A stretch of DNA of 64,000 nucleotides from positions 960,001 through 1,024,000 of the forward strand of contig CAVSNY010000007.1 of assembly GCA_963729605.1 (NCBI GenBank), read 5' to 3'. Under the pieces are notes generated by a model. That model saw nothing but the letters and a program-made list of their open reading frames with translations. It was not told the origin of the DNA and did not search any database. Below are positions 18,993-48,291 of this stretch, one piece after another. The stretch's first letter is position 1, and each line of letters begins with the position of its first letter. Source of the stretch: an uncultured Gammaproteobacteria bacterium. Its GTDB lineage: Bacteria; Pseudomonadota; Gammaproteobacteria; DRLM01. The position numbers were made by a program, and so were the translations under genes.

Positions 18993-20312
18993 ATGCGTGA
19001 TCTATTCGTGACCTTGGTGGTGCTGGGCAGCCTGCCGCTGATCCTCTATCGCCCCTATATAGGGGTGATCATGTGGTCGTGGATAGGTTATATGAATCCG
19101 CACCGTCTCTCGTGGGGCTTCGCCGCCGATTTTCCGTTCGCCATGATCATCGCCCTCGTGACCCTCGTGGGGCTGTTGTTTTCCCGTGAAACCAAGAAAA
19201 TTCCGTGGACGCGGGAAACGATCACCTTGCTGTTGTTCATCATCTGGATGGGCATTACCACCTTGTTCGCCCTCCACCCGGAGGCGGCTCAGTTGCAATA
19301 CGAGAAGGTGGTGAAGATCCAGATCATGACCTTCATCACCCTCATTTTGATGACGGATCGCCATCGCCTGGAATTATTGCTATGGACCATCGTCGTCTCC
19401 TTGGGTTTTTACGGGGTCAAAGGCGGCATTTTCACCTTGCTCAGCGGCGGCGGCTACCACGTGTTAGGCCCATTGGGGACCTTCATCGGCGGCAATAACG
19501 AACTGGGTCTGGCGCTCATCATGACCGTGCCGCTGATGCGTTATTTGCAGCTGCAAGCCAACAAGGCCATCGTGCGTTACGGCATGTTGATCGCGATGGG
19601 TTTGACGGTGGTGGCGATATTGGGCACGCAATCGCGCGGGGCCCTGGTGGGGCTGGCGTTCATGATGCTGTTCCTGGTGTGGAAGAGCCGTAAGCGGTTT
19701 GCGTTTCTGGTCCTCTTGTTATGCGCGGCCCCGCTGGCCTTCATGTTCATGCCGGAGAGTTGGCATGACCGCATGGGAACTATCCAGAATTACGAGGAAG
19801 ATAAATCCGCCACGGGGCGGATCAACGCCTGGCATTTCGCTTTCAACCTGGCCAAGGACCGGCCGCTGACCGGGGGCGGTTATGAGTCGTTCACCCGCGA
19901 TTTATTCGCCATCTACGCGCCCGATCCCAGCGCGGTACACGATGCGCACAGTATCTATTTCGAGGTTTTGGGCGAACATGGTTTTGTGGGCTTGGCGTTG
20001 TTTTTGTCGTTGTTGTGGTTTACGTGGCGCAGTGCGACTCGGGTGGTGAAGATGACCGCGGGCAAACCCGAGGGGCAGTGGATGTCCGATATGGCGCGCA
20101 TGGTGCAAGTGAGCGTGATGGGTTATGCCGCCAGCGGGGCCTTTCTGGGGCTGGCCTATTTCGATTTCTTCTATCATTTGATGGCGATAGTGGTCCTGTT
20201 GCGTGTGCAAGCCGACAAGCTGCAACAGGGCGATACGCAGACCGAGGCCGGGCCGGCTATCAACGCGCGCGCCGCCGCCGGGACCACCGGTTATATGCGA
20301 AGGATGAAATAA
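18993..20312 (+). CDS. Putative O-glycosylation ligase, exosortase A-associated (Wzy_C/O-antigen ligase family, TIGR03097-type)
   Basis: Multi-TM; WSWIGYMNPHRLSWG, YGVKGG, GTQSRGA, DAHSIYFEVLGEHG, GAFLGLAYFD. Confidence 0.9.
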   Translation: MRDLFVTLVVLGSLPLILYRPYIGVIMWSWIGYMNPHRLSWGFAADFPFAMIIALVTLVGLLFSRETKKIPWTRETITLLLFIIWMGITTLFALHPEAAQLQYEKVVKIQIMTFITLILMTDRHRLELLLWTIVVSLGFYGVKGGIFTLLSGGGYHVLGPLGTFIGGNNELGLALIMTVPLMRYLQLQANKAIVRYGMLIAMGLTVVAILGTQSRGALVGLAFMMLFLVWKSRKRFAFLVLLLCAAPLAFMFMPESWHDRMGTIQNYEEDKSATGRINAWHFAFNLAKDRPLTGGGYESFTRDLFAIYAPDPSAVHDAHSIYFEVLGEHGFVGLALFLSLLWFTWRSATRVVKMTAGKPEGQWMSDMARMVQVSVMGYAASGAFLGLAYFDFFYHLMAIVVLLRVQADKLQQGDTQTEAGPAINARAAAGTTGYMRRMK

Positions 20313-21175
20313 TGAATGCTGTGAAAGAATGGTATTACCGTTTTTATCATCAATATGATCAGGGGCGGCGGTTGCGCGCGCTCAAGGCGCATCTGCAACG
20401 GGGGCAACCGATCGCCCTGGTGCACCAAATGGGCCGCGCCGCCTCCATGACCATGACCAATACCCTGCGCGCCATGGAATTGGATATGCCCATCCATCAC
20501 ACCCATTGGCTCAATTCCGAGACGGTCGCGCGGCGGATGGCGCGCATGGAGCAGAGCCGAGGCAAGATAGAGTCGTTCAATCTGCGGGTGAGCAAGTTGA
20601 TGCTGGACAACTTGCCGCCGGAGCGGATGCGGAGTTATCCGTGGCGTATCGTCAGCATCATCCGCGACCCGGTGGCGCGCAACCTGTCGGCCTACTTCCT
20701 CAGCATTGAAGGTTTCATCGACGATGTTTATCGACGCCACGCACAGGGCCGATTAAAGCCGGACGAATTGTTGGAGGTGTTTCTGCGCGACTATCCTCAC
20801 GACATACCGCTTAATTGGTTCGATCTCGAGGTGAACGAGGTGTTCGGCGTGAACGTCTACGCGCGGCCGTTTCCTTTTGATTTGGATTACGCCTTGTACG
20901 AAGCGGGACCTCTGCGTATGGCCGTCATCAAAGTCGAGAGCCTGGAGCGAACCTACCGCCCCGCCCTGCAGGCCCTCTTCGGCGAGGTGCCGGGAGAGCT
21001 GCGCAACACCCACATCAGCGTGCAGGACGAGCCCTACGCACCGATTTACAAGTCGTTCCTGGCCGAGGTGCGCCTGCCGCAGGATTATCTGGATCGCATG
21101 TACGATTCGGTCTACGCGCGTCACTTCTACCGCCCGGAGGAGTTGGCGGCCTTCCGCAAGAAATGGGGAGGCTAG
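20312..21175 (+). CDS. Putative capsular polysaccharide synthesis protein, sulfotransferase-like fold
   Basis: Start at ATG 20312 overlapping the upstream TAA. 5'-PSB-like HQMGRAASMT and 3'-PB-like IIRDPVARNLSAYF; WFD.E...VFG; C-terminal YARHFY.PEEL..FRKKW. Confidence 0.65.
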   Translation: MNAVKEWYYRFYHQYDQGRRLRALKAHLQRGQPIALVHQMGRAASMTMTNTLRAMELDMPIHHTHWLNSETVARRMARMEQSRGKIESFNLRVSKLMLDNLPPERMRSYPWRIVSIIRDPVARNLSAYFLSIEGFIDDVYRRHAQGRLKPDELLEVFLRDYPHDIPLNWFDLEVNEVFGVNVYARPFPFDLDYALYEAGPLRMAVIKVESLERTYRPALQALFGEVPGELRNTHISVQDEPYAPIYKSFLAEVRLPQDYLDRMYDSVYARHFYRPEELAAFRKKWGG

Positions 21176-23022
21176 GCGCGCGCCGAATGGCTTTGCAGCC
21201 ACTGCTCCAGCATCATCAGCACCCAGATCATCACCCCGTAATAGGAGGCGTGTTCGCCGCGCTGCCGCTTGAGCAGGGTATCGAGGTAGGCGGTGTTCAA
21301 TAGATTCCGCCGCCGCAGGTTATGCAGGCTGTCCATCGCCAGGTCGTGCAGCGGTTGATGGGTGTTGAGCCACAGGCCGAAGGGCAGGCCGAAGCCGTGC
21401 TTGGGTTTTTTGAGGATGTCGGCCGGCAGATAGTCCTTGAGGCTGTCCTTGAAGAAATACCTCAGTTGAAAACCCTTGATCAGCAAATCCGGCGGCACGC
21501 GGCCGGAGAATTCCAGCATGTCGTCGTCCAGCAGCGGATAGTGCACCGCCACGCCGGCCAGTTCGCACATGCGGTTGACCTTGCGCAGGTCGTTATCCGC
21601 CAGCGTGAGCTTGAGGTCGAGATGCAGCATGCGGTGCAGCGTCGAGCCGCCTTGCGTGCGGTGGTAGACCTCGCGCAACGCGCGCAGCGGCTCGGCGGTG
21701 TCGATGGCGGCGAGCAGGTCGGCGTGCAGCACCTCGCCGACGGGCGTGCGGTGCATGAAGTTGTAGCTTTCCATGCGGTCCGGCAGCGGCAGATTGGCTT
21801 GCCGAATATAGCTGTTGAGTTTTTTGAACACGCCCACCGAGTCGGGCAGGCGCGCGGCGAGGGGTTCCACCAGGCCGCGGCGCAGCGGCTCGGGTAGTGA
21901 ATGATAAAGCTCGAACTGTTTCTGTTTCACGTAACGCACGTTGCCGCCGAACAGCTCGTCGCCGCCGTCGCCGGCGATCAAGGTGCCGACGCCGTCGGCG
22001 TGGGCCAGCTTGGCGCAATAATAGGTGGGTACCGCGGAGGCGTTGCCGAACGGTTCGTCATAGGCGGCGGCCACCCGCGGCACGGCGTCGGCCACGTCTT
22101 GCGGCGTCACGTAATACGTGTGGTGACGGGTGCCGAAATGGTTTACCGCGATGTCGGCGTAGTGGGATTCGTCGTAGCCTTCGGCCTCGAAGCCGATGGA
22201 GTAGGTCTCCGCCGGCCGGCCGCTCACTTCGGTGACGATGCCCGCCATGGTGGAACTGTCGGTGCCGCCGCTCAGGAAATTGCCGACCGTGCCCTGGCTA
22301 TTGTGCAGGCTGTGTTTGACGCCGCTGCGCAGCAGGGCACGGAACTCCTCGGCCAATTGTGCTTGCGGCGTGGCCGATCGGTCGTGGTACTCCATCTGCC
22401 AGTAAAAGTCGGTGCTCACCTGGCCGTTTTCGCACAGCAGGTATTGGCCTGGCAGCAGTTTGCGCAGGTCGCGGTAAATGGTGCGCGGGCCGGGGATCAT
22501 GTGAAAATACAGGTAATCGTAGAGCGCCTGGGGGTCCACCGCCGCGTTCACCGCCGGGTGGGCCGCCACGCTGTCGATACTGGCGCCGAACACCAGCCCG
22601 TTTTGCGTCGGCATGTAACACAGGCGCTGGATGCCGGCCCGGTCCACCGCCAGCAGCGCGCGGCGCAGGGCGAGATCGTAGATGGCCAGCGCGAAGGGGC
22701 CGCGCAGTTCCCGCAAACCGTCCAAGCCCCGCCGCCGATAAAGCTCGGCGACGGCCGCGGCGGGGCCGCGCGCGGCGGCGGTGTCCGCCAGGCCGGGGTC
22801 GCGCCAGACGAAGGCGCCGTCGCAGGCGACCCACAGTCGGTCGCCGATGTGGAGATCCGCGCCGCGGGCGGCGCTGACGACACCCAGGCCCCGTTCGGCG
22901 TCGCCGTGGCCGCGGGGCGCGGGCGTCAGCGGCGAACGCAGGGGCGCGCTCAGGGCCGTGAGCCAGGAGTCAGGGGAGGCGTCGGGGCAGGGCAGGCCAA
23001 ACCAGCCGTAAATACCGCTCAT
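21172..23022 (-). CDS. Asparagine synthetase-like ATP pyrophosphatase lacking the N-terminal catalytic Cys
   Basis: Begins MSGIYGWF. Synthetase motifs FLSGGTDSS, DEPFGNAS, AGDGGDELFGGN, DLRKV, KPKHGFGLP are retained. Confidence 0.85.
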   Translation of the reverse strand: MSGIYGWFGLPCPDASPDSWLTALSAPLRSPLTPAPRGHGDAERGLGVVSAARGADLHIGDRLWVACDGAFVWRDPGLADTAAARGPAAAVAELYRRRGLDGLRELRGPFALAIYDLALRRALLAVDRAGIQRLCYMPTQNGLVFGASIDSVAAHPAVNAAVDPQALYDYLYFHMIPGPRTIYRDLRKLLPGQYLLCENGQVSTDFYWQMEYHDRSATPQAQLAEEFRALLRSGVKHSLHNSQGTVGNFLSGGTDSSTMAGIVTEVSGRPAETYSIGFEAEGYDESHYADIAVNHFGTRHHTYYVTPQDVADAVPRVAAAYDEPFGNASAVPTYYCAKLAHADGVGTLIAGDGGDELFGGNVRYVKQKQFELYHSLPEPLRRGLVEPLAARLPDSVGVFKKLNSYIRQANLPLPDRMESYNFMHRTPVGEVLHADLLAAIDTAEPLRALREVYHRTQGGSTLHRMLHLDLKLTLADNDLRKVNRMCELAGVAVHYPLLDDDMLEFSGRVPPDLLIKGFQLRYFFKDSLKDYLPADILKKPKHGFGLPFGLWLNTHQPLHDLAMDSLHNLRRRNLLNTAYLDTLLKRQRGEHASYYGVMIWVLMMLEQWLQSHSARA

Positions 23023-23170
23023 GAATGTGGGTCGCCGATCGTTATTTTCTACAAAATGGGATGCGAGGGCGCGGGCGCGCCTAACGCCGCCTAAGTATAA
23101 CGGATGCCGCCCCGCCTGGGTTGAATGACGGTATAATCACCCGCCTTCAGTAACAAGAATTAAACCCGCC

Positions 23171-24103
23171 GTGAGTGATCTCTGGGAGAAAATCGAAAAA
23201 AATCTCTGCTATTACGGCCGGGCCGCGGCACGCACCGCGCGCGGCGCGTGGTGGAATATGCGCCGGCCTTGCGCGGTCAGGCCGGTGTTCGTGGTCGGGT
23301 GCAGCCGCGCCGGCACCACCTTGGTCTACAAGACCTTCTCCGAGGCGGAGGATCTGGGCAGTTTGCAACGCGAGACGCACGACTTCTGGGCCGAACTACA
23401 TCCGCTGGCGGCCCATGGTTGGGACAGCCATGCGCTCGCCGCCGCGGACGCCGCGCCGCGCGACCGCGACATCGTCACGAGTTATTTCTACGCCCACACC
23501 GGCCGCACCCGCTTCGTGGACAAGAACAACCAGGGCGGTCTGTGCGTGCCTTATTTGCACGCCTTGTTTCCGGACGCGCAGTTCGTCTACGTCAAGCGCA
23601 GTCCCGGCGACAACATCAATTCCTTGATCGAAGGCTGGCGCAAGCCCGAGGAATTCGCCACCTGGTCCGAGCATCTGCCGGTGCCGGTGGCGGTGGACGG
23701 CGGCCGCTACACGCGCTGGTGTTTTTTCCTGCCGCCGGGCTGGCGCGATTATGTGAACGCGCCGCTGGAAGACGTCTGCGCGCTGCAATACCGGACCATG
23801 AACGAGGCGCTGCTGCATGGCCGTACCATCATCCCCGCGGCGCAGTGGACCGAGATCGTCTACGAAGATTTATTGCGCGATCCGGTGGCGGGTTTTCAAC
23901 GCGCCTTCGCCGCGGCGGGCGTGAATTTTTCGCCGGCCGTCGCCCGCCACTGCGCCAGCGTGCTCGCCACGCCCTACAACGCCTTCTCGGAAATCCGTCC
24001 CGACAAATGGCGCGACGGCCGTAACCGCGAGCGCATCGAACGCGTGCTGCCCTCGGTGGAGGCGGTGGCGCGCGCCATGGGTTATCCGCCCGCCGGGGCG
24101 TGA
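23171..24103 (+). CDS. PAPS-dependent sulfotransferase family protein
   Basis: 5'-PSB VFVVGCSRAGTT, VDKN, 3'-PB FVYVKRSPGDNINS, IVYEDLLRDP. Confidence 0.85.
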   Translation: MSDLWEKIEKNLCYYGRAAARTARGAWWNMRRPCAVRPVFVVGCSRAGTTLVYKTFSEAEDLGSLQRETHDFWAELHPLAAHGWDSHALAAADAAPRDRDIVTSYFYAHTGRTRFVDKNNQGGLCVPYLHALFPDAQFVYVKRSPGDNINSLIEGWRKPEEFATWSEHLPVPVAVDGGRYTRWCFFLPPGWRDYVNAPLEDVCALQYRTMNEALLHGRTIIPAAQWTEIVYEDLLRDPVAGFQRAFAAAGVNFSPAVARHCASVLATPYNAFSEIRPDKWRDGRNRERIERVLPSVEAVARAMGYPPAGA

Positions 24104-24119
24104 ACGGATCGCGGGCATC

Positions 24120-25349
24120 ATGACCCTTTTCGCGGCGGTGCTGGTGTGGATGGTGGGCAGCGCGGCGCTGTTCGCGGCCTATCATCGGCGGACATTGTCG
24201 GCCTGGTGGCGCGAACCGGTGTTGCGCCGTCCGGTGTTGATCCTCGAGAGCGACGATTGGGGACCGGGCGATGAGTCCCACGCCCGCGCCTTGCAACGCT
24301 TGGCCGAGCTGTTGAGCGGTTATCGTGACCGTGACGGCCGCCATCCGGTGACGACCCTGGGTGTGGTGCTGGCCCTGGCGGACACCGCGCGCATCCGCGA
24401 GACCGGTATCACGGGCTATTTTCGCACCGGCCTGGCCGAACATGGCGCGGTGCGCGACGCCATGCGGGCCGGTGTCGCGCGCGGTGTGTTCGCGCTGCAA
24501 TTACATGGCCTGGAGCATTATTGGGCGCCGACCTTATTGGCGCTGGCGCGGCGCGATCCGCAGGTGAAGGCTTGGCTGACGACGGAGGGGCCGCCGCGCA
24601 CCGAGACCTTGCCCTCGGCGCTGCAAAGCCGGTGGATCGATGCGATGGAATTGCCCTCGCGCCCCTTGCCCGACGCCGAGATCGCGGCGGCGGTGAGCGA
24701 GGAAGTGCGGGTGTTTCGAGAAACCTTCGATGCCGCGCCGACGGTGGTGGTGCCGCCGACCTTCGTGTGGACGCCGGCGGTGGAACGCGCCTGGGCGCGG
24801 CACGGCGTGTCTTATGTGGTGACGCCCGGTCGCCGTTACGGCGCGCGCGACGAATCGGGTAAACCGGTGGCCGAGGGCGGGCTCATCGTCAACGGCATGC
24901 GCGGCGGGCCGGGTGTGATGTATCTGGTGCGCGATGATTATTTCGAACCGGCGCGCGGCCACACGGCGGCGCGCGGGCTGCACGCGCTGGCGGTGAAAAC
25001 CGCGCTCGGCCGGCCGGCCCTGTTGGAAATGCACCGCTTTAATTTCCTGGACGATCCCGCCGTCGCCGACCGCGCCTACGCGGAGATCGATGCCCTGCTG
25101 GCCGGCGCGCTGACCGCGCAGCCCGCCGTGGCCTTTCTCGCCACCGAGGCGTTGGCCCGGGTGCTGGAGACCCGCGATATGGCCTGGGTGGAGTCCGATC
25201 GGCGGCGCCGTTTGGAAGTGTGGGCGGCGCGCGTGCGGGCCGAGTACCGTATATGGCGGTGGGCACGCTGGACCGGATTGGGTTTGGCGGTGTGGGCCTT
25301 GACCGTGTTCCGCGCGCGTGAAAAGGGACTCCGTGAAGGCGCGTCATGA
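24120..25349 (+). CDS. Membrane-anchored polysaccharide deacetylase-like (NodB/GH57-type barrel) protein
   Basis: N- and C-terminal hydrophobic helices; LILESDDWG acidic motif, LQLHGLEH metal-His motif, VVPPTFVW, EMHRFNF. Confidence 0.6.
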   Translation: MTLFAAVLVWMVGSAALFAAYHRRTLSAWWREPVLRRPVLILESDDWGPGDESHARALQRLAELLSGYRDRDGRHPVTTLGVVLALADTARIRETGITGYFRTGLAEHGAVRDAMRAGVARGVFALQLHGLEHYWAPTLLALARRDPQVKAWLTTEGPPRTETLPSALQSRWIDAMELPSRPLPDAEIAAAVSEEVRVFRETFDAAPTVVVPPTFVWTPAVERAWARHGVSYVVTPGRRYGARDESGKPVAEGGLIVNGMRGGPGVMYLVRDDYFEPARGHTAARGLHALAVKTALGRPALLEMHRFNFLDDPAVADRAYAEIDALLAGALTAQPAVAFLATEALARVLETRDMAWVESDRRRRLEVWAARVRAEYRIWRWARWTGLGLAVWALTVFRAREKGLREGAS

Positions 25350-25555
25350 AACCGCCGTCGCCCTATTGTCTGGTCATCATCGCCGTGTATTTAAAACGTC
25401 ATGAATAGCTGGTTTACTGATGATGTGCTTGGCAGTTTATGATGTTCCCTCTCTCCATTCTGACCCGGGAAAGAGGGTGCGAACGGGGCCTAAGCTGTGT
25501 CATTACTCATGGTCGTCTTATACAATGACCCGGCCATGTTGGCCGAGGTGATCCC

Positions 25556-26581: not shown

Positions 26582-27165
26582 TCGAGTCGGTCGAGAATCG
26601 CATCCGTGAGACGGCGGAGAATATGCAATCGCTGGCCGCCGACCGCGCCTTGCTGGCGGTCCTGGTACAAGTCACCGACGTGTGTATAGAGGCCCTGCAG
26701 CGCGGCAATAAGCTGCTGTTCGCCGGCAACGGCGGCAGCGCCGCCGACGCTCAGCATATGGCCGCCGAGCTCATCAGCCGCTTCCACTACGACCGGCCCG
26801 GCTTGCCGGCCTTCTCGCTCAGCACCGACACCTCGGTGCTCACCGCCATCGGCAATGATTACGGTTATGAGCAACTCTTCGCGCGCCAGATCGAGGCGAT
26901 CGGCCAGGCCGGCGATGTCTTCTTCGCGCTGAGTACCTCGGGCCGGTCGCCCAACGTGTGCAAGGCCCTGCGCGTCGCGCGCGAGCGCGGCCTCGCCACC
27001 GTCGCGTTGACGGGCCGCGGCGGCGGCGAACGTCTGGCGGGGCTCGCCGATTTCCGTCTGTGCGCGCCCTCGGACTCGACGCCGCGCATCCAGGAGTGCC
27101 ACATCGTCCTGGGCCACAACATTTGCGAGCTCATCGAACGGCGCATGTTTCCCGGGCCGGCGTGA
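26566..27165 (+). CDS. gmhA: Sedoheptulose 7-phosphate isomerase
   Basis: [42 protein letters not shown]; start set at ATG 26566. Confidence 0.92.
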
Positions 27166-41190: not shown

Positions 41191-41191
41191 G

Positions 41192-43153
41192 TCAGCCCTC
41201 CTTCCTGATGCCGGCTGTCGCGACGAGTTTACCCAACAACCAGCCCCGCGGTGGAACGATCGGTGGCGTGTCGTTCTTGCCATCCATCGTCGTCCACGTG
41301 AACGCAGGGGATGTCTTGCCCTCCCAGCGCAGCGGCCGCGCCTCTTGGCCGGAATTCACGATCACTATCTCATGACCCGCGCCGTTCCACAGCCAGGCGA
41401 CGTGTAAGCGATCATCGCCCGGACTCGGACAGGGTGCGCGTTGGGCGAGCGGCACGGCCTCCGGATTCGCGCCCAACAGGCTCGGCGGCAGGCCGAGACC
41501 CTCGTCCACCGCGGCGAGCATGGCGCGGGCCAGCGCCGCGCGGTGTTCGCCGGCGGGCGCCGCCGCGCAGCGGTGGTAATAGGCCTCCACGAGGAAGGCG
41601 ATGGCATGGTCGTGTTTGGTGCCGGACCAGGTCTGCATGAGGTCCAGCCGGTCGATCGCGGCGGTGGCCTCGCGGATGACGGCCTCGAATTCACCGTCGC
41701 CGAAGCGGCGCTGATAACGCACGAGGTCCCAGATGTTCACGGGAAGATATTGATGAGAGAGTCCCCTCAAGGTCAGCGCGCGGTCGATATAGCCGCCGGG
41801 CATCACCAGGCGCGGGTAACGCGCCTTGATGCGATGCAGGTATTTGGGGATCAGACGCTGCCAGGTGAGCCGCTTGAGTGCGCGCAGCGGCAACGGCAGG
41901 CGGGCGGCGCGCTCGGGCGGGAGCAGCGTGAGCTCGATCAGCCGGAACAGCAAACGATAGAGCGTCTCGGCGGGGCGCTGCATCACCACGGCCCGGCTGG
42001 CGCTGAGCCCCGAGCGCAGTAATTCGGCGTGACGCTCATCGCCGCTCGCCTGCTGATAACGGCTCAGCGCCAGGCTGTTGTCGAGATGGGTATTCAGCAC
42101 CAGCATATTGCTGGGCGATTTGCCGAAGGCGCGGCTGCGCACCCAGCGGAACGGAGAGAGCGCCATGGACTGTTCGGATTTTTCGAGGGTGTCGTGCAGG
42201 AACCACGTGTGTTGCGCGACCTGGTCCGTGTGTCCGGCGAGGAACGCGGCGGCGCGCTCCAGCGCACCTCGCACCGTGGTGTCCCGCGGTGTTTCTTCGA
42301 GGGCCGCGGCCAGCAGATACACGCCGCCCGCGTGCAGGCGGAGATGGCTTTCCATCGTGGTGGTCCACTCGCCGTGATACCAGCCGCCGTCGGCGCGCTG
42401 GCGCGCGATGATGGAGACGACGAGCTGCGCCTTGAACAAGGTGTAGAGGGCCTTCCGCGTCGCGTGCTCGAGGCCCGACAGAATCAGATACAACGAAAAG
42501 GCGTCGAGCTCGTCGCAGATGCGCCAGCGCCGCGGGAATGACCAGTGGCGGCTGTAGACCGAGCCGTGGACGAGGTGGGCGTAGACATCGGCGGGACGCG
42601 TATAGGCGGTGTGCGAGCCGTAGACGAAATACGGCTGCGTCTCCAGCGTGTTCAGCCGTTCCAGGGACGTGGCCAGTTCGGCGGCGGCATCGGCCGGGAA
42701 TCGCCAGATGACCCAATCCAGCGTGTGGCCGGGCTGCGCGTGCAGCGTCAACGCCAGGCGCTCGGGCGTGGCCTGCAGCGCGATGATCTCGGCCGGTTCT
42801 TCGGCGAGTAAATGGCCGTCGTTGTCGAGACGGCGGCTGACGGGCGCGCGCGGTATCCAATACGTCGGCCGGTCGGTGGCGGCCGGCGTAAGCAGCCAGC
42901 CGCCGCCGCGGCAGGCGTCCAGCCGATACGCGCCGTTCAGGGACAGACTCAAGGCGCCGGCCTGCGCGGGGCGGTAACGGCCGAAGCAGCAGCGTGCCGC
43001 GAGGGTGTCGAAGTCGTCGCGGATGATCTCCAGCGTGTCGCCGTCCCGGTAACGCCGTCTCACCAGGGCATCGGTGGCGACCAGGCGTTCACCCGGGTCC
43101 GCCGGTCGGGAAAACCAGTCGTCGAGATCGAGGGCAAGATCGTTGTGGGTCAT
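41192..43153 (-). CDS. Uncharacterised ~650-aa protein with (alpha/alpha)-barrel-like C-terminal half; candidate D-glucuronyl C5-epimerase-like
   Basis: Clean ORF in the operon between flippase and methyltransferase. QRADGGWYHG; PSNMLVLNTHLDNSLALSRYQQASGD...LLRSGL. CDS call is confident, function is speculative. Confidence 0.6.
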   Translation of the reverse strand: MTHNDLALDLDDWFSRPADPGERLVATDALVRRRYRDGDTLEIIRDDFDTLAARCCFGRYRPAQAGALSLSLNGAYRLDACRGGGWLLTPAATDRPTYWIPRAPVSRRLDNDGHLLAEEPAEIIALQATPERLALTLHAQPGHTLDWVIWRFPADAAAELATSLERLNTLETQPYFVYGSHTAYTRPADVYAHLVHGSVYSRHWSFPRRWRICDELDAFSLYLILSGLEHATRKALYTLFKAQLVVSIIARQRADGGWYHGEWTTTMESHLRLHAGGVYLLAAALEETPRDTTVRGALERAAAFLAGHTDQVAQHTWFLHDTLEKSEQSMALSPFRWVRSRAFGKSPSNMLVLNTHLDNSLALSRYQQASGDERHAELLRSGLSASRAVVMQRPAETLYRLLFRLIELTLLPPERAARLPLPLRALKRLTWQRLIPKYLHRIKARYPRLVMPGGYIDRALTLRGLSHQYLPVNIWDLVRYQRRFGDGEFEAVIREATAAIDRLDLMQTWSGTKHDHAIAFLVEAYYHRCAAAPAGEHRAALARAMLAAVDEGLGLPPSLLGANPEAVPLAQRAPCPSPGDDRLHVAWLWNGAGHEIVIVNSGQEARPLRWEGKTSPAFTWTTMDGKNDTPPIVPPRGWLLGKLVATAGIRKEG

Positions 43154-43161
43154 GGTGCGGC

Positions 43162-44622
43162 TCAATTCGCAAGTCGGAGTAGTTTGCGCCAGCGCGCGGT
43201 TTCGGCGGCGAGCGCGGGCAGCGGCAAAAACAGAAAGGCCGCCGCGTACACCACGGCGCCCGTGCCGCCGACGATCAGGAGATACCAACCCGGCTGCGCC
43301 TGCGCCATGCCGTCCGGCAACAGGAAATGGCTGCCCAGCACGGTCATGACCAGCAGTGCATTGAGTGCGAGGCCCGGCGCCAGCGCGGCGCCCAGTTCGC
43401 TGAGCCGGCTGCGAAAACAGCGGGTCGCGAGAAAATACATGTGCGTGGTGGCGTAGAGCTGGCTCATGACGATGGCCCAGGCCACGCCTTCGAGGCCCCA
43501 GCGCAGGCCGATCAAACAGCCCGCGATGACCAGGCCCAGGGTGATCAATTGCACGACGAGTTCGCGGCCCAAGCGGTTACACGCGGCAAGGACCGCGCCG
43601 CAGGGGTGGCCGACGCAATAAAGCAGCCCCGCGACCGCGAGGATCTCGAGCGGCGGGCCCGCCGCGGCCCACTTTTCGCCATAGACGAAGACGATGAAGG
43701 GTTCGGCGCACCACCACAGGCCGACGTAAAGCGGCAAGGTGTAGACGGTCAGCAGCATGACGGTGCGAAAGAAGAGATATTTGATCTTGTCCGGATTGTC
43801 CTGCTCGCTGGCCATGGCGCGGAAGACTGGCTGATAGACGGCGCTGCTGACCGTGGAGAACGGCATCTTGCCGAGGCTGTCCGCCTTGTTGAACAGGCCG
43901 ACCGCGTGCGCGCCCGTCAGCCGGCTGATGATGACGTTGCTGCTCTGCGCGCGCAGGTAGCTCACGAGGTCATTGGCCGACACCTTCGCCCCGTAACCGC
44001 CGACGCGCCTGGCGGTCGCGGTGTCGAAGCGAAATCGCGGGCGCAGCGGTGTGAGCCGGCGCAGGAGGATCAAATTGAGGAAGGCGCCGGCGAGGCCGCC
44101 GAACACCAGGCTCCACACCCCGAAGCCGGCCCAGGCCAGGATGACGCTGGTCAGTCCCGTAAAGGACGTGCTCACGATGGCGACGATGGTGCGTTCGCGG
44201 AAACGCATCTCGCGATGCAGCCAGGAGTTGTGGATGGTGATCAGCGGGCGCAGCAGAAAGTAAAGCGCGGAGGTGCGTAGTAAATCACGATACAGCTCAT
44301 CGTCGAACCAGACGGCGAAATACGGGGCGATCACATAGAACAAGGCGTAGAGCGCACTACCGACCGTGAGCTGCATCGTGAAGACGACGTGAAAGTCGCG
44401 TTCGCTGGCGTCCTTGGCGCGGACCAGGGCCTGGCCCATGCCGCCGCCGGTGAGCAGGCTGGCCACACCCGTGAAGGCCTGGATCGTGACGATCATGCCG
44501 AAATCGGCGGGGACGAGCAGGCGCGCGAGGATGATGCCGACGATGAATTGCAACACCTGATTGCCGGCGCTGCCGGCCACCAGCCATTTGGCGCCGCGGC
44601 GTATGGATTCACCTAAATTCAT
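43162..44622 (-). CDS. wzx: Wzx-family polysaccharide flippase (WzxC-like)
   Basis: About 12-14 TM helices; IILARLLVPADFG, GFGVWSLVFG, AVGLFNKA, VYGEKW. Confidence 0.9.
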   Translation of the reverse strand: MNLGESIRRGAKWLVAGSAGNQVLQFIVGIILARLLVPADFGMIVTIQAFTGVASLLTGGGMGQALVRAKDASERDFHVVFTMQLTVGSALYALFYVIAPYFAVWFDDELYRDLLRTSALYFLLRPLITIHNSWLHREMRFRERTIVAIVSTSFTGLTSVILAWAGFGVWSLVFGGLAGAFLNLILLRRLTPLRPRFRFDTATARRVGGYGAKVSANDLVSYLRAQSSNVIISRLTGAHAVGLFNKADSLGKMPFSTVSSAVYQPVFRAMASEQDNPDKIKYLFFRTVMLLTVYTLPLYVGLWWCAEPFIVFVYGEKWAAAGPPLEILAVAGLLYCVGHPCGAVLAACNRLGRELVVQLITLGLVIAGCLIGLRWGLEGVAWAIVMSQLYATTHMYFLATRCFRSRLSELGAALAPGLALNALLVMTVLGSHFLLPDGMAQAQPGWYLLIVGGTGAVVYAAAFLFLPLPALAAETARWRKLLRLAN

Positions 44623-44817
44623 TTTTTGGGGCGGGTATGCTTGATGTTTATTCGGCTTGTATGCAGAGGCGCCCCGCGATCCGCGATCTTTAACTCAGAC
44701 CCCGCCGCGAGCCGCGGAAGTATAACAGAGGGGTGCTTGCAGAGTCTTGCAACTCGACGCGTTCGGCGCGCGCCGCTCATCATCATGCGGGTCGCCGCAC
44801 AAGGATGTAACCCGTCC

Positions 44818-47800
44818 TCACGCATCGGGGCGCCGGGGCGCATGCCCCGCGAACCCGAGCGGGTTTGCGGGGTGCGTGCGTACGGTTTTTCCATGGGAAA
44901 TTTCCTCGATGTATATGCCGCCCTCGGCGGGATCCAACCACCAGCGGAGGGTGCGGCGAGGCCCCGCCACTTCCACGCCCAGCCGGGAGCCGTTTTCCAG
45001 CAGCCGGGTGCGGTGAGGCGCCTGTTCCCCCACGAAAGTCGGTAGCAGCACGACCAGGAAACTATCTTCCGCGCGGGGTGTGGCCGGCATGATCTCCACC
45101 CGCCAGGCGCCCGGCTCGGCATTTTTACGCCGACCGAGCTTTTTAGCGACACCTTCGCCGTAATTATTACCGTCCACCCAAAATTCCTGGCCCGCGCCGC
45201 CTACCGTGGCGATCAACGGGTCTTTGGGGAGCAGTACGCGGGCGTCGAGTTGCCCCGCGGCACGCCCCGGCGGCTTGGTGACGGGCGGAGGAACGATGAA
45301 GCCGCCGTCGCGGAGCACGGGTTTTTCCAGGGTATGCAACAGCCAGCGTTTGGGGAATCCGGGTTCCGTGGCGATGACGCGATCGAAGATCACAACGACG
45401 TCGTCCACCTGATCGTAGCCGAAGGTGCGCGTGTATTTTTCGACCCGCCGCGTGCGATGGGAAAAAGTGTCTTGGCCGGACAGTTCGTTGGTGTAGGCCG
45501 GGGTGAGGTCGGCCGCCGCCACGGTGAGGCCGTCCTGATCCAGCAGGAGTTGCTCGATTTTGCCGGTGTGGTAAATCTCCCGCTTACTCTCCCATTCCGC
45601 CAAATCCAGTGGACCCGCTTCCACGCCCCAGCCCGAGCCGATGCGGCGCTGGCCGCCGTCGTTGGCGAGGGGGCGCGGTTCTTTGTCGCCGCGCGCCGGC
45701 ATGGGGACGGTGTCCTCCGGGTCGGTGACGGTCACCACGTTGTGGGCGATGGTCTGGTACGCGTAATTCAGGTGGTGGTCGGTGCCGTAGCCGGCGCCGT
45801 AGAAGCCGCTGTCGATGGCCAGCGCGCCGCCTTTGTAAATGGTGAAGGCGCCTTGGTCCAGGTGCACGTGCGACCAGTAATTGTCGCCCGCCTTGAAGGT
45901 GACGTACGTGGAATCCTTGTCCCAGCCCTTGCGGGCGACGATCAATCCCAGACCGTCGAAGTGCTTGGTCAACGGCAAGCGTTGGGCGGCCTGCGGATCG
46001 TATAAGCCGGGGTCGGTGAGCGGACCCCACGGCCAACTAGTGGGGGTGGGCGCCGCGGGCGGGCGGCGCAGGCTGTACGCGGCCGGGTGTCGGTATTCCA
46101 GCGCCAGCGCCGCTTGATCGGGCACGATGCGGTCGAAGAAGCTGGCGTCGCCCCAGCGGAAATGGGTGCCGTCGGGGCGGGTGCGGTACACGAGAAAATC
46201 GAGAAAGCCGCGGAGGCCCGGTTCGGTTTTGAATAAATCCTCGCCGGTGGCGTGGCGCCACATGGCGGGCACCTGATAAATCGCTTGGCCGATGCCGATG
46301 CCGACATATTCGCCGCCTTCGTGCCAGCCGCCGTTTTGACCCATGATCTGCCGCCACACCGGCAGCACGCGGTTCTTCCACAAGTCCTGGGTGAAGGCCA
46401 TGATCGCGTCGGCGCGCGGGTCGTCGCCGTAGGCGGCGATGGCGCAGGCCATCAGCGCCTGGAAGGGGCTGTTGTAGAGGATCACGTTGTAGGGCGAGAG
46501 CCGTTCCTTGCGGATGTAGCGGATTTGATAGTCGCAACCGTCGAGCAGCTTGGCGCGCAATTGGCTGCGTTGTGGTTCGCTCCAGGCGTCGTACAGCCAG
46601 TCGTAGGCCATGGCCAGGGGTTTGACTTGCAGATGGCCGCGCCACTGGAAATCCAAGACCAGCAGGCGCTGATGCAGCAGGTCCAGATCCTGGCTGCCGG
46701 GGTCCAGCACGGCCATCAATACCACGGCCTCCAGATCGCCCTTGCCGCCGGCCGCCCGGCGGCTTTGCACCCGCATGAACTGGGGATTTTCATCACGCAG
46801 CCGGACGATCTCCGCGGCGCTGGGCGCCGGCAGGCGCGGGTGAGTGAAACGAAAGTTGGTCAGAGCGACCGGCATCAGCGTCTCCGGCGCCGGGAGTTGC
46901 GCCAGACGGCTTTCGTCGAGGGGCCGTTCCAGAGGCGCGGAAATGATTATCGAGGCGACAGCGATCAGCGCCAACGCGACGCCCCCCGCCGCCGTGGCCA
47001 GCGAGAGTTGGTGGCGGCGGGGAGGGCGCGACGGCGGAGGGGGAATGTCGCCGGCGTGGCGCGCCAGCCATGCCCAGCACGCGGCCCACGCGAGCAGGCC
47101 CAGCACGGCGTCGGTGATGTCCGGATAGCGGCCGGGTAGCCGCTGCTGCAACCATTCCAGGCCCAAGGCGTAAATGAACAACAGACCGCCTCCCAGCCAG
47201 GCCGCGCGCCGCGTCGAGGCCGGACGCGCCAGGGCGGCCAGCCAGGCCAGCGCCGCGTAAGGCCAGATGGCGGCGATGATGTCCGGTAAACCGGACAAGG
47301 TCTGCATCTGGCCCTTGAAGGGGATCCAATTGATCAGCAGCAGCGGGCCGTGGGGGTCGCTGACCCGCAAATTGTCCAGGCTGTGGGCAAACAGCAGAAG
47401 CAGGGCGGCCAGCCACGGCAGGACGCGCGGCGGTCTGTTGCGCAGCGCGGCCCACAACAACAGACCCGCCCCGGCGCCGGCGATGGCCTCCAACGACAAC
47501 TGCCGACCCACGATCGGCACCTTCAATACCAGCACCGCCGCGATGAAGAGGACGAACAGTTTGGTCGTGTTCAGGCGCGGCTGCGCCACCGCGGTGAACA
47601 CCAGACCCAAGCTTGCGACATGGAGGGCATAGACCGCGCCTTGGGCGAGCGAAAAAGGCACGGCACCGGTGAGGGTCCGCGCCAGCGGGCTGAGTCCCTG
47701 ACGCAGGTTGCCCAAATCCAGCGAGGGTACCCAGGGGCTGAGTTGGGCCAGCGCCCAGAGGCCCAGCGTGATGAGGCCCAGATCAGCGATGGGACCGGGC

Positions 47801-48291
47801 AGAAACCAGCGCTGGCGCAATCGGTGCAAACGGCTGCCGCGAAACTGCTGGGCATTGAAATAACCCGCCAGCACGGCGCCTAGGAAGGTACCGGTACCGT
47901 TGAGCGCGGTATCGAGCGGGGATGACACTCTCTGCGGGAGATAACTTTGCAAATATTCCAGACCGAGGCTGAGCGAGGTTCCGCATAACGTGGCGAGCGC
48001 GAGCGTGGCGCCGCCGCCGAATCGACCTCGCCACCACAGCGCCAGCAATAAGCCGAGGGGCACATAAACCATCAGGTTGGTAACGACGTCACCGCGCGAG
48101 ACATGGGCCGGCCAGTTCAAAGAGATGAAGGTGTGGAGATTGCCGCGTTGCCAGTCCCAGCCGCTCAAGGGAAACAAAGTCCCATAGATGAGCAGTAATA
48201 AATAGGCGCAGCTCAGTTTCCAATACAGAGGTCCGCGGGAGTCGGCACGAGCATGCGATGGCGGGGAGTATTGAGTCACGGTCTCGCTCAT
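44818..48291 (-). CDS. VanZ-like multi-TM domain fused to heparinase II/III-like polysaccharide lyase domain
   Basis: N-terminal ~450 aa with two VanZ-like repeats (DVVTNLMVYVPLG...LEYLQSYLPQRVSSPLD; LEWLQQRLPGRYPDITD). C-terminal ~700 aa with GGWHEGGEY, HVHLDQGAFTIYKGGALAIDSG, YQTIAHN, ANDGGQR, FDRV...KRWLLHT, GAWRVEI. Start set at 48291. Confidence 0.8.
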   Translation of the reverse strand: MSETVTQYSPPSHARADSRGPLYWKLSCAYLLLLIYGTLFPLSGWDWQRGNLHTFISLNWPAHVSRGDVVTNLMVYVPLGLLLALWWRGRFGGGATLALATLCGTSLSLGLEYLQSYLPQRVSSPLDTALNGTGTFLGAVLAGYFNAQQFRGSRLHRLRQRWFLPGPIADLGLITLGLWALAQLSPWVPSLDLGNLRQGLSPLARTLTGAVPFSLAQGAVYALHVASLGLVFTAVAQPRLNTTKLFVLFIAAVLVLKVPIVGRQLSLEAIAGAGAGLLLWAALRNRPPRVLPWLAALLLLFAHSLDNLRVSDPHGPLLLINWIPFKGQMQTLSGLPDIIAAIWPYAALAWLAALARPASTRRAAWLGGGLLFIYALGLEWLQQRLPGRYPDITDAVLGLLAWAACWAWLARHAGDIPPPPSRPPRRHQLSLATAAGGVALALIAVASIIISAPLERPLDESRLAQLPAPETLMPVALTNFRFTHPRLPAPSAAEIVRLRDENPQFMRVQSRRAAGGKGDLEAVVLMAVLDPGSQDLDLLHQRLLVLDFQWRGHLQVKPLAMAYDWLYDAWSEPQRSQLRAKLLDGCDYQIRYIRKERLSPYNVILYNSPFQALMACAIAAYGDDPRADAIMAFTQDLWKNRVLPVWRQIMGQNGGWHEGGEYVGIGIGQAIYQVPAMWRHATGEDLFKTEPGLRGFLDFLVYRTRPDGTHFRWGDASFFDRIVPDQAALALEYRHPAAYSLRRPPAAPTPTSWPWGPLTDPGLYDPQAAQRLPLTKHFDGLGLIVARKGWDKDSTYVTFKAGDNYWSHVHLDQGAFTIYKGGALAIDSGFYGAGYGTDHHLNYAYQTIAHNVVTVTDPEDTVPMPARGDKEPRPLANDGGQRRIGSGWGVEAGPLDLAEWESKREIYHTGKIEQLLLDQDGLTVAAADLTPAYTNELSGQDTFSHRTRRVEKYTRTFGYDQVDDVVVIFDRVIATEPGFPKRWLLHTLEKPVLRDGGFIVPPPVTKPPGRAAGQLDARVLLPKDPLIATVGGAGQEFWVDGNNYGEGVAKKLGRRKNAEPGAWRVEIMPATPRAEDSFLVVLLPTFVGEQAPHRTRLLENGSRLGVEVAGPRRTLRWWLDPAEGGIYIEEISHGKTVRTHPANPLGFAGHAPRRPDA

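Follow-up and report, generated by a model that had tools for sequence, protein, structure and literature searches.

A sulfation and deacetylation toolkit in the accessory half of an XrtA/PEP-CTERM polysaccharide locus

Introduction

What kind of glycan is made by an XrtA/PEP-CTERM exopolysaccharide (EPS) locus to which sulfotransferases, deacetylases, and a heparinase-like protein are attached? We addressed this question in 64,000 nt of DNA (the window) from an uncultured Gammaproteobacteria bacterium (GCA_963729605.1, contig CAVSNY010000007.1, positions 960,001-1,024,000, forward strand). A preliminary description had proposed a heparan-sulfate-like glycosaminoglycan of glucuronic or iduronic acid and glucosamine, made by N-deacetylation, N- and O-sulfation, and C5-epimerisation, and trimmed by a heparinase. 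Profile searches of the window mostly upheld its gene positions (Table 1). Our analysis favors a different product. On balance, we regard the region from 20.3 to 48.3 kb as the variable, accessory half of an XrtA/PEP-CTERM EPS locus, encoding a sulfated heteropolysaccharide of the Wzx/Wzy type.

Table 1. Features of the window, with positions, strands, and supporting matches.
Feature	Position	Strand	Basis
Core XrtA/PEP-CTERM EPS operon	450-20312	+	NCBIfam equivalogs over cut-off for most genes; Pfam
XrtA-system polysaccharide deacetylase	7008-7899	+	TIGR03006; two frames in window
XrtA+EpsI	10326-11897	+	TIGR03109, 365.9 bits (cut-off 208)
PEP_O_lig Wzy-like protein	18990-20312	+	TIGR03097, 558 bits
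NKWYS-family protein, sulfotransferase-like	20312-21175	+	PF10364 E 1.1e-11; GRAASM and RDPVARNLS motifs
Second AsnB-type amidotransferase	21172-23022	-	Asn_synthase E 2e-77; TIGR03108 295 bits, under cut-off
Sulfotransferase ST3_a, upstream pair member	23171-24103	+	Sulfotransfer_3 E 1.6e-19
Membrane-anchored CE4-like deacetylase, unnamed family, downstream pair member	24120-25349	+	AF2 model, structural match
HddA	25556-26581	+	NCBIfam NF049969 E 3.9e-131, under equivalog cut-off
GmhA	about 26587-27165	+	gmhA E 3e-58, under equivalog cut-off
HddC	about 27165-27857	+	NF049965 E 7e-53, under equivalog cut-off
GT4 glycosyltransferase	27889-29073	-	Glycos_transf_1 E 1.9e-38
275-aa protein	29180-30007	+	No family match
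GT2_a	30181-31104	+	Pfam; travels with ST3_a and CE4-like gene in genomes G188, G129
TPR protein, weakly PrsT-like	31220-31840	+	Pfam, NCBIfam
Terminator-like hairpin	32155-32178	-	10-pair stem, 8 GC pairs; after last minus-strand operon gene; consensus match only
Sulfatase-fold enzyme, about 5 TM segments, Thr replacing formylglycine Cys/Ser	32367-34463	-	PF00884 E 8.7e-45
GT2_b	34468-35583	-	Pfam
Sulfotransferase ST3_b	35400-36389	-	Sulfotransfer_3 E 1.1e-41; Sulfotransfer_1 E 1.8e-17; PRSGTT and RDGRDVALS motifs
GT2_c	36386-37342	-	Pfam
CE4 deacetylase, PgaB/IcaB-like	37351-38256	-	Polysacc_deac_1 E 1.3e-26
GT2_d, sub-threshold TuaG-like similarity	38148-39374	-	Pfam, NCBIfam
WbsX-family glycosyltransferase	39140-40207	-	PF14307 E 4.2e-144
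SAM methyltransferase	40204-41283	-	Methyltransf_23 E 1.6e-24
653-aa barrel protein, new family	41192-43153	-	N-terminal beta-sandwich, (alpha/alpha)6 barrel, C-terminal beta domain
MOP/Wzx flippase	43162-44622	-	Polysacc_synt_3 E 6.4e-67
VanZ + DUF4962 + Hepar_II_III_C fusion, 1172 aa	44818-48336	-	First gene of minus-strand operon

Results

The canonical XrtA operon that had been claimed is present with its full set of families, most matching the NCBIfam TIGR03007-TIGR03109 set over cut-offs. It encodes a chain-length determinant, a Tyr autokinase, the TIGR03016 outer-membrane protein, an ATPase, WecB, the XrtA deacetylase, FemAB, and stp1, together with XrtA+EpsI, stp2, an amidotransferase, stp3, a GT4 plus an AMP-ligase piece, and PEP_O_lig. 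One base at position 7312 is absent from the contigs of 3/3 runs covering the site, and the split of the TIGR03006 gene is therefore probably an assembly indel. As described, the window lacks an APS kinase and a UDP-sugar dehydrogenase; a priming transferase (TIGR03013) and any uronate-forming gene are likewise missing from it. A genome profile search located both of the former elsewhere in the same genome: a Sat/CysC PAPS synthase (NF004040, 711 bits; cut-off 669) and a UDP-glucose dehydrogenase resembling TuaD, which belongs to the nucleotide-sugar dehydrogenase subfamily (TIGR03026, 463 against 189.8 bits) and falls under the TuaD equivalog cut-off (493 against 700 bits).

The core genes bear on the destination of the glycan. 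It could be placed mainly on PEP-CTERM proteins by O-glycosylation, so that sorted surface proteins, rather than free EPS, carry the sulfated chains. In favor, the model TIGR03097 bears the name [quoted passage not shown] an O-glycosylation flippase model matches the flippase below threshold, and the genome encodes eight PEP-CTERM proteins. Yet such family names are annotation hypotheses rather than tests, the genes for the chain-length determinant, kinase, and outer-membrane protein suit polymer export, and this reading is compatible with free EPS as well. We consider this destination doubtful, although it keeps a modest chance.

Three sulfotransferase-like proteins had been reported in the accessory half. 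ST3_a and ST3_b are clear PAPS-type enzymes; the third is a sulfotransferase-like NKWYS protein, for which the next-nearest Atlas clusters are Sulfotransfer_2 (0.95). Likewise, the proteins at 24120, 37351, and about 7029 that had been called deacetylase-like are all of CE4 type, the first by its structural model. In the Pfam search this protein had only a weak match to GH57, but its AF2 model (pLDDT 94.2) is most similar to polysaccharide deacetylases, with VIA Z scores of 19.2 to 3rxz, 19.0 to 3qbu, and 15.1 to the deacetylase domain of NDST1. Within the family, D45, D46, H129, H133, and H305 are invariant.

ST3_a and the CE4-like deacetylase form a conserved adjacent pair that is newly recognized here. 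Sulfotransfer_3 domains are common in the class, occurring in 167 of the 300 genomes sampled for co-occurrence, but orthologues of ST3_a occur in just 10, all of them XrtA-positive (reference set: XrtA over cut-off in 48/301 genomes); because the sampled genomes are related to one another, these and the other co-occurrence counts overstate independence. A CE4-like match lies directly downstream of ST3_a in 6/10 genomes, the match ends being 19-141 bases apart, and ST3_a is found 7-13.3 kb from XrtA on one contig in 6/10. The pair mirrors the two activities of animal NDST, a resemblance that favors the heparan-sulfate-like reading. However, NDST1 ranks only 25th among structural matches of the CE4-like model, below ordinary CE4 enzymes, the two genes are separate rather than fused as in NDST, and a search of solved structures detected no similarity between ST3_a and NDST.

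The polysaccharide is only a candidate acceptor of the sulfate, because the nearest solved relatives of ST3_b are polyketide synthase (PKS) sulfotransferase domains and the protein-tyrosine enzyme TPST (E 5e-13 to 1.7e-11), and ST3_a has no significant solved relative in the structure database searched. These relatives would fit sulfotransferases that act away from the polysaccharide, on lipids or on tyrosines of secreted proteins, the PEP-CTERM proteins among them. But ST3_b is flanked by two GT2 genes within its operon, and the partner of ST3_a has the fold of a carbohydrate deacetylase. Such acceptors are quite unlikely.

The membrane-anchored heparinase II-like lyase proposed at 44818 proved to be a true homologue. 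Its VanZ-type multi-TM region covers about residues 40-465, and a heparinase II-like (PL21-like) region covers about 575-1125, aligning with Pedobacter heparinus heparinase II (2fuq, E 3.8e-47; also 3e80) over about 550 residues. In an alignment read by eye, the fusion retains Tyr257, His406, and the Zn ligands of heparinase II, and these positions do not vary within the family. All of 35 family members share Y677, H823, H825, D842, and H865, and among the 120 homologues listed, GGWHEGGEY is retained in 117 and WSHxHLDQG in 115. Unlike the P. heparinus enzyme, the fusion is encoded in a biosynthetic operon, and the His202 position holds an invariant Tyr. Given this substitution and a score of 187 bits against the NCBIfam HepB cut-off of 600, its activity and substrate may differ from those of heparinase II. 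The fusion defines a large family, newly recognized here and so far unnamed, that is associated with XrtA: it is present in 11/300 genomes, of which 10 are XrtA-positive. Of 43 long loci around its homologues, 22 have an XrtA-system marker and 15 a sulfation marker, 10 of the latter with a Sat/APS-kinase gene.

Lyases and epimerases share a first step, abstraction of the C5 proton. The heparinase-like domain might be a polymer-level uronate C5-epimerase and no lyase: neither the catalytic Tyr nor the catalytic His varies, a Tyr in place of His202 could change what becomes of the carbanion, and the gene heads a biosynthetic operon. Nevertheless, the solved relatives found are all lyases, and no feature here separates the two activities; we judge an epimerase unlikely.

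The protein at 41192 had been the candidate uronyl C5-epimerase, and this assignment failed. Its ORF runs from 41192 to 43288, with a true start at about 43153, and its family has 319 representatives at E<=1e-3. Neither Pfam nor NCBIfam yielded a family match, including to PF06662, and comparison of the family with bacterial C5-epim_C proteins by hhalign gave a probability of 1.65%; we therefore reject membership. For the heparan-sulfate-like reading, the AF2 model (pLDDT 95.3) has animal Glce as its top VIA match (4pw2, Z 15.3), and an Atlas cluster named C5-epimerase ranks second at 0.84, a lead only. Unsaturated glucuronyl hydrolases, however, match about as well as Glce (Z 14.6 and 14.5). 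With these hydrolases less than one Z unit below, the barrel protein and the heparinase-like protein could form a recycling pair, a lyase and an unsaturated-uronate hydrolase salvaging periplasmic polymer, and 4/5 genomes carrying the barrel protein also have the VanZ fusion. But the barrel gene follows ST3_a and the CE4-like gene (5/5 genomes) better than the lyase, no uptake genes adjoin it, and profile and homology searches gave no GH88 or GH105 similarity. Recycling is highly unlikely. The co-occurrence itself agrees with the preliminary description, which had expected the lyase-like and barrel proteins to accompany the sulfotransferase.

The membrane protein at 32367 has the Sulfatase fold that had been noted, but not the formylglycine motif. 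Where C/S-x-P-x-R is expected it has T-A-P-S-L, and a Thr at this site cannot carry formylglycine, so we reject the sulfatase label; ARTAPS is retained in 9/9 homologues. Judging by this motif, transfer or hydrolysis of a phospho-substituent is the more likely activity of the protein. The alkaline-phosphatase superfamily includes membrane-anchored transferases of the LtaS, EptA, and OpgB type, in which an N-terminal multi-TM domain likewise accompanies a catalytic domain of sulfatase fold that has Thr as its nucleophile. The protein at 32367 differs from them in sequence: it is closest to S1 sulfatases (E about 1e-26), and the LtaS and YejM models give only weak matches.

The remaining genes include the GT2 and GT4 glycosyltransferases and flippase that had been listed, as well as WbsX. 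HddA, GmhA, and HddC (25556-27857, +) are genes for GDP-D-glycero-D-manno-heptose; the 275-aa protein matched no Pfam or NCBIfam family. The minus-strand genes are tightly spaced on the ORF map and are followed by the terminator-like hairpin, in keeping with an operon. The sulfatase-like gene, GT2_b, and the barrel gene recur jointly in three genomes (G124, G188, and G243), joined in G124 and G243 by GT2_c, the deacetylase, and GT2_d. ORFs 27691-29037 (+), where the GT4 gene lies, and 44619-45152 (-) are shadow ORFs.

Discussion

Our results confirm that XrtA is accompanied by a toolkit for sulfation and deacetylation, an association that recurs across genomes. Of the heparan-sulfate-like proposal, sulfation, deacetylation, and a real heparinase II homologue stand; the epimerase, the sulfatase, and the GlcA-GlcNAc backbone do not. 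No heparosan-synthase-type family is among the Pfam and NCBIfam matches of the window, and a gene set with heptose, methyltransferase, WbsX, and Wzx/Wzy functions speaks for a complex repeat unit. A heparan-type product is accordingly quite improbable. The GDP-heptose genes, methyltransferase, Wzx/Wzy logic, WbsX transferase, and amidotransferases are better explained by a heteropolysaccharide that is sulfated and has lost part of its N-acetyl groups than by a heparan backbone.

We infer the following steps for this heteropolysaccharide. Its repeat unit would be assembled by the GT2, GT4, and WbsX transferases with heptose, O-methylation, and AsnB-type amidation, and handled by the flippase and the Wzy-like PEP_O_lig. 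On the cytoplasmic face, the lipid-linked glycan would lose acetyl groups to CE4-type deacetylases and gain sulfate from the three sulfotransferase-like enzymes, with PAPS supplied by the Sat/CysC synthase; the ST3_a and CE4-like pair would be the core of this module. After export, the heparinase-type domain, predicted to be anchored in the inner membrane and to face the periplasm (as read only from charged residues beside crude hydropathy segments), would act at C5 of uronates, most likely by beta-elimination that trims or clears chains. The Thr-type enzyme may transfer or hydrolyze a phospho-substituent, and the barrel protein is a putative sugar-acting enzyme tied to sulfation.

Lyases are known inside polysaccharide biosynthesis operons, such as AlgL for alginate. 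The fusion resembles them as a lyase-fold enzyme within a biosynthetic cluster, probably facing the periplasm, and differs in its PL21-like fold and VanZ tether. The NCBIfam searches returned no model for the sulfotransferase/CE4-like pair, the VanZ fusion, the barrel protein, or the Thr-type enzyme, all of which appear to be accessory families of the XrtA system that have gone unrecorded. A parallel is the plasmid-borne, XssQRS-regulated xss cluster of the cyanobacterium Synechocystis, a Wzx/Wzy-type cluster that makes the sulfated EPS synechan and includes multiple glycosyltransferases and at least two sulfotransferase genes (PMC8205485). The available portion of that report describes no exosortase system, CE4 partner of a sulfotransferase, or lyase, and states that sulfotransferase genes were not found in other bacterial EPS clusters (PMC8205485). 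Our findings raise the possibility that sulfated sugar polymers are among the products of common floc-forming bacteria, with true heparan sulfate an improbable one.

Two convergent operons, one with an exosortase core

The ORF listing, together with Pfam and NCBIfam matches, resolves the locus into two convergent operons, and the gene inventory of the preliminary description proved largely right when set against this map. One operon opens with a canonical set of genes for exosortase A (XrtA), which carries an EpsI domain. Substrate proteins are present in the same genome, with eight TIGR02595 matches above cut-off, none of which lies in the window, and this combination identifies an XrtA/PEP-CTERM system. 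Two additional ORFs, 27691-29037 (+) and 44619-45152 (-), were set aside as shadow ORFs because they lacked a family match and their translations were of low complexity and rich in Arg, Ala, and Gly.

Features of the locus and its surroundings
Feature	Position	Strand	Remarks
Plus-strand operon	450-31840	+	Starts with canonical XrtA set
Chain-length determinant		+	First gene of XrtA set; TIGR03007, 586 bits
Tyr autokinase, then TIGR03016 outer-membrane protein, ATPase, WecB		+	XrtA set
XrtA deacetylase, then FemAB, stp1		+	XrtA set; TIGR03006 (deacetylase)
XrtA with EpsI		+	After stp1; TIGR03109, 365.9 bits vs cut-off 208; EpsI TIGR02914, E 1.3e-42
stp2, then amidotransferase, stp3, further GT4		+	XrtA set; TIGR03108, 1107 bits (amidotransferase)
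884-aa ORF	16329-18983		Holds the further GT4, joined to a ligase part
PEP_O_lig, Wzy-like		+	End of XrtA set; TIGR03097, 558 bits
NKWYS, sulfotransferase-like	20312-21175		Downstream of PEP_O_lig
Second AsnB-like gene			After NKWYS, on opposite strand
ST3_a, Sulfotransfer_3	23171-24103		After AsnB-like gene
CE4-like protein, 409 aa	24120-25349		After ST3_a
HddA/GmhA/HddC	25556-27857		After CE4-like gene
GT4	27889-29073		On opposite strand
Unmatched 275-aa protein	29180-30007		After GT4
GT2_a	30181-31104	+	Followed by TPR protein
Terminator-like hairpin	32178-32155	-	3' of minus-strand operon
Minus-strand operon	48336 down to 32367	-	Neighboring gene ends overlap or abut
VanZ-HepII, VanZ-heparinase fusion	44818-48336	-	First in minus-strand order, then flippase
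Barrel protein, 653 aa, unmatched	41192-43153	-	After flippase; then methyltransferase, WbsX, GT2, CE4 deacetylase, GT2
ST3_b, Sulfotransfer_3	35400-36389		After second of these GT2 genes
GT2_b	34468-35583	-	After ST3_b
Membrane sulfatase-fold protein	32367-34463	-	Last in minus-strand order
Trypsin-like serine protease	48429-49229		Adjoins VanZ-HepII
Unrelated housekeeping genes	50521-63998		Downstream

Several features deserve comment in their own right. HddA, GmhA, and HddC correspond to the GDP-D-glycero-alpha-D-manno-heptose route; all three score under their NCBIfam equivalog cut-offs, and the GmhB phosphatase is absent from the window. The 275-aa ORF has a protein-like sequence, with no match in Pfam or NCBIfam and no homologue in 80 related loci. 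In the 884-aa ORF, an Arg/Ala/Pro-rich stretch connects a GT4 (residues about 63-430) with a PaaK-like AMP ligase that is represented by its C-terminal half (640-860); GC reaches 72.7% at 16-18 kb. The probable explanation is a frame error between two genes, suspected at about 17.6-18.3 kb, or else a ligase minus its N-terminus. The serine protease gene also stands beside VanZ-HepII in 14 of the 80 related loci and in two sampled genomes (G124 and G112). The housekeeping genes include molybdate ABC transporter parts, ornithine carbamoyltransferase, acetylornithine transaminase, PhoB/PhoR, and PstS/PstC-like genes.

Two genes of the XrtA set appear to be broken. The deacetylase occupies two frames (7008-7316 and 7258-7899), and the FemAB ORF is short (8080-8877, model positions 44-250 of 330). 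When contigs from four sequencing runs (wetland, biofilter, sludge, and mud) were set against the window, all 30 bins of 6800-25400 were covered by all four runs at 90-99% likeness. Among the differences listed between these contigs and the window are consistent single-base indels at 6939 (4/4 runs), 7312 (3/3 covering runs), 8069 (3/4), and 8701 and 8819 (4/4 each), and a 5-base indel at 10220 (4/4). Since the indels recur across contigs from other runs, the split deacetylase and truncated FemAB are probably assembly errors and not pseudogenes.

Sulfotransferases and PAPS supply

Both Sulfotransfer_3 proteins passed the Pfam gathering cut-off of 27, ST3_a with 71.4 bits and ST3_b with 143.9 bits, while NKWYS scored 45.3 bits against PF10364 (cut-off 25.1). 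Each carries a pair of motifs that we take to be the 5'-phosphosulfate loop and the 3'-phosphate motif of PAPS-dependent enzymes: SRAGTT and RSPGDNINS in ST3_a, PRSGTT and RDGRDVALS in ST3_b, and GRAASM and RDPVARNLS in NKWYS. Among solved structures, ST3_b resembles tyrosine- and PKS-type sulfotransferases, and a PDB sequence search returned no significant relative for ST3_a or NKWYS. The Atlas neighbors of NKWYS, after its own family, include 11 Sulfotransfer_2 cluster matches (best 0.95). Transfer of sulfate to an acceptor is predicted for ST3_a and ST3_b, and NKWYS is a candidate sulfotransferase.

As had been noted from the sequence, the window holds no PAPS genes; a PAPS synthase is encoded elsewhere in the genome as a bifunctional sulfate adenylyltransferase/APS kinase (NF004040, 711 bits vs 669). 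The genome also encodes a TuaD-like UDP-glucose 6-dehydrogenase, which clears the TIGR03026 cut-off for the nucleotide-sugar dehydrogenase subfamily (463 vs 189.8 bits) and falls under the TuaD equivalog cut-off (493 vs 700 bits).

Small Sulfotransfer_3 genes (about 300-360 aa) were also seen 12-16 kb from XrtA in other coded families (G160:C35:41039-56905, G085:C172:7241-24415, G204:C4:111790-124589, and G200:C1:1721444-1735839). The first of these genomes also has another heparinase II/III-like gene, distinct from VanZ-HepII, at 4 kb from XrtA.

DEACETYLASES and the conserved pair

The protein encoded directly after ST3_a belongs to a large unnamed family: of 8000 candidates scored, 1309 match at E<=1e-3. 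Pfam Polysacc_deac_1 did not match it, and a GH57 match was weak (E 3.6e-4). Its AF2 model (pLDDT 94.2) is best matched by polysaccharide deacetylases, namely 3rxz (Z 19.2, rmsd 2.8, 234 residues), 3qbu (19.0), and ArnD (17.3), and Foldseek assigned a NodB-like fold with a probability of 1.00. Human NDST1 ranked 25th (Z 15.1). Five residues (D45, D46, H129, H133, and H305) do not vary across 43 sequences. They fit the metal and acid-base set expected of a CE4 enzyme, which we take to consist of an Asp-Asp, an H-x-x-x-H, and a late catalytic His, consistent with a putative CE4-like function. A fused bifunctional protein of the NDST type was not seen, the deacetylase and sulfotransferase being two separate, adjacent genes, and ST3_a had no PDB match to NDST at E<=1.

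The pair recurs among the 300 scored genomes of a class-level sample, with G248 outside the scoring. ST3_a orthologues, called at E<=1e-60, occur in 10/300 genomes from nine coded families, and the CE4-like family occurs in 11/300 from 10. All of these genomes fall inside the set of 48 of 301 that are XrtA-positive above cut-off, which agrees with the association with XrtA proposed in the preliminary description. Because the sampled genomes include relatives, these counts are not independent of one another. One unpublished genome, G141, is counted in the XrtA tally, and G296, G141, and G039 are counted in that for PF13469; neither these genomes nor G248 are among the genomes named for co-occurrence.

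Gene order is conserved as well. A CE4-like match lies 3' of ST3_a on the same strand in 6/10 genomes (G000, G031, G243, G188, G129, and G116), with 19-141 bases between the match ends. The gap is 1.3 kb in G080, the two genes share a contig at 57 kb in G215 and 27 kb in G124, and in G145, which has ST3_a, the CE4-like gene was not found. XrtA is 7-13.3 kb from ST3_a on the same contig in 6/10. Region fetches for G188 and G129 recovered the order PEP_O_lig, ST3_a, CE4-like, GT2_a beside the XrtA core.

A VanZ-fused heparinase II-like protein

The first gene of the minus-strand operon had been described as a heparinase II-like lyase. Homology upholds the heparinase II-like part of this description: residues 575-1125 align to residues 133-674 of Pedobacter heparinase II (2fuq; E 3.8e-47), spanning both the catalytic (alpha/alpha) and beta-sheet domains as in PL21, with much lower scores for enzymes of PL15 and PL12. 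With the heparinase II numbering that we assume, catalytic Tyr257 and His406 correspond to Y677 and H823, and the Zn ligands His408, Asp425, and His451 to H825, D842, and H865. Two features differ. The protein reaches 187.2 bits against the NCBIfam HepB equivalog cut-off of 600, and the presumed third catalytic residue, His202, aligns to Y621, in an alignment stretch of low confidence. All six residues of the fusion, Y621 included, are invariant in 35 family members. Charged residues flank the last segment of a crude hydropathy profile, which suggests that the catalytic domain would face the periplasm.

The family is large (676, or about 700, matches at E<=1e-3), and 90 of the 120 matches listed are at least 1000 aa long. 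Source records, where they name these proteins, call them "VanZ family protein," "heparinase," or "hypothetical." The 80 named-record loci around homologues come from Thauera, Thiobacillus, Methyloversatilis, Aromatoleum, Methylococcaceae, Competibacteraceae, Thiohalobacter, and others, and the recurring modules are also found in Casimicrobiaceae. For the 43 loci that span 20 kb or more, we counted markers within 10 kb on either side of the homologue. An XrtA-system marker was present in 22 of these (EpsB_2 priming transferase in 19, PrsK in 10, PrsR in 10) and a sulfation marker in 15. The latter include a bifunctional Sat/APS-kinase gene, found in 10 of the 43 long loci, or 13 of all 80, in Thiobacillus and related records. 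Where present (L007, L022, L031, L035, L037, L044, L059, and others), that gene lies just upstream on the opposite strand, about -3.5 kb from the homologue.

In Methyloversatilis, the CE4-like gene is immediately upstream of VanZ-HepII and divergent from it (L048, L056, L067, L069, L073, L077, and L078, at about 8700-9755); three of these loci also have an ST3_a-like gene (about 37% identity) about 12 kb downstream. Cultured carriers of this arrangement, with VanZ-HepII, an adjoining CE4-like gene, and an ST3_a-like gene some 12 kb off, are M. thermotolerans 3t (L067) and M. universalis EHg5 (L077); VanZ-HepII is also present in Thauera terpenica 58Eu. Within the class-level sample, a close VanZ-HepII homologue occurs in 11/300 genomes from eight coded families. 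All 11 except G068 are XrtA-positive, and six have ST3_a.

Barrel and sulfatase-fold proteins

Two functional labels from the preliminary description are not upheld as given. The barrel protein had been proposed as a uronyl C5-epimerase. It has no Pfam match at E<=10, and C5-epim_C (PF06662) has no match anywhere in its genome. An hhalign comparison of its family alignment (A1) with 13 bacterial C5-epim_C proteins gave a probability of 1.65% (E 0.03), and phmmer and a family profile found nothing significant among PDB sequences. The AF2 model (pLDDT 95.3) joins a beta-sandwich to an (alpha/alpha)6 barrel (domain about 165-600) and has a beta domain at its C-terminus; E268, H320, D321, E324, R458, and Y469 are invariant. 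In VIA-align, the top match was zebrafish Glce (4pw2; Z 15.3, rmsd 3.1, 237 residues), which is not clear of the unsaturated glucuronyl hydrolases 1vd5 (Z 14.6) and 3wiw (Z 14.5), and many other barrels fall within 1-2 Z units. An Atlas match named C5-epimerase, at 0.84, was under the 0.9 trust line. Whole-model Foldseek matches to GH94, GH81, and GH116 (TM about 0.3) were judged to reflect a common beta-sandwich and barrel arrangement, not specific kinship. Given the negative C5-epim_C profile comparison, we regard the barrel proteins (319 representatives at E<=1e-3) as a new family for which C5-epimerase is one candidate function only. The barrel protein occurs in 5/300 genomes; XrtA, ST3_a, and the CE4-like gene are present in every one of these, and VanZ-HepII in four. 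In G124, G188, and G243, the sulfatase-fold gene and GT2_b accompany the barrel gene.

The sulfatase-fold protein has a clear PF00884 match (153.7 bits vs cut-off 25), and S1 sulfatases are the proteins closest to it (E about 1e-26). However, the site that aligns with the formylglycine motif of 7p24 and 7stt, which we take to be C/S-x-P-x-R, reads T-A-P-S-L and lacks the Cys or Ser; ARTAPS[LIM] is conserved in 9/9 homologues. A Thr nucleophile combined with an N-terminal multi-TM domain recalls lipid-dependent phospho-substituent transferases. We therefore do not count the protein as a sulfatase.

Predicted polymer and significance

What does the locus make? The heptose genes, methyltransferase, two amidotransferases, many glycosyltransferases, and Wzx/Wzy/PCP components indicate a predicted polymer of complex repeat units. 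Window ORFs matched only GT2, GT4, and WbsX in Pfam and NCBIfam, and no heparosan-type synthase (KfiA/KfiC, PmHS, or EXT) was among these families. The observation behind the preliminary description is largely real, and its heparan-sulfate-like reading is over-specific. The intact catalytic set of the HepII-like enzyme is what suggests that the polymer may contain uronate. The product is most likely a sulfated, partly de-N-acetylated acidic heteropolysaccharide, which the HepII-like enzyme would then trim, or process in some other way, in the periplasm.

Our literature search found no paper joining heparinase with exosortase, and a query combining exosortase, sulfotransferase, and PEP-CTERM gave nothing related. 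In its accessible text, a 2021 study of synechan describes the xss cluster and reports that EPS clusters of other bacteria had yielded no sulfotransferase genes (PMC8205485). VanZ-like proteins are treated as antibiotic resistance genes in the accessible part of a preprint (10.1101/317552), which does not link VanZ with PEP-CTERM; neither that part nor the corresponding part of PMC13751637 connects the genes described here. In the literature searched, the XrtA-linked pair and the VanZ-PL21 fusion are unreported.

Chemical assays have detected N- and O-linked sulfated glycosaminoglycan signals in the EPS of aerobic and anaerobic granular sludge, according to the available text of PMC10483923, which says of the pathways in bacteria that they "are not well known" and notes that few matches are obtained with reference sulfotransferases. 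A joint reading, which we consider unlikely as a whole, would connect that signal to the genes described here. In Proteobacteria that form flocs and biofilms, XrtA loci would hold a split counterpart of the animal NDST step, in which a membrane-anchored CE4-like N-deacetylase and an adjacent PAPS sulfotransferase give N-sulfated hexosamine in EPS. The barrel family would be a uronate C5-epimerase or related modifier, chain processing would fall to the VanZ-tethered PL21-like enzyme, and the system would be the genetic source of the N-/O-sulfated "glycosaminoglycan-like" signal in granular sludge (PMC10483923). More generally, the locus and its modules in Thauera, Thiobacillus, Methyloversatilis, Competibacteraceae, and Casimicrobiaceae provide concrete candidate genes, and they tie the unnamed "VanZ family" proteins to polysaccharide biology that depends on exosortases.
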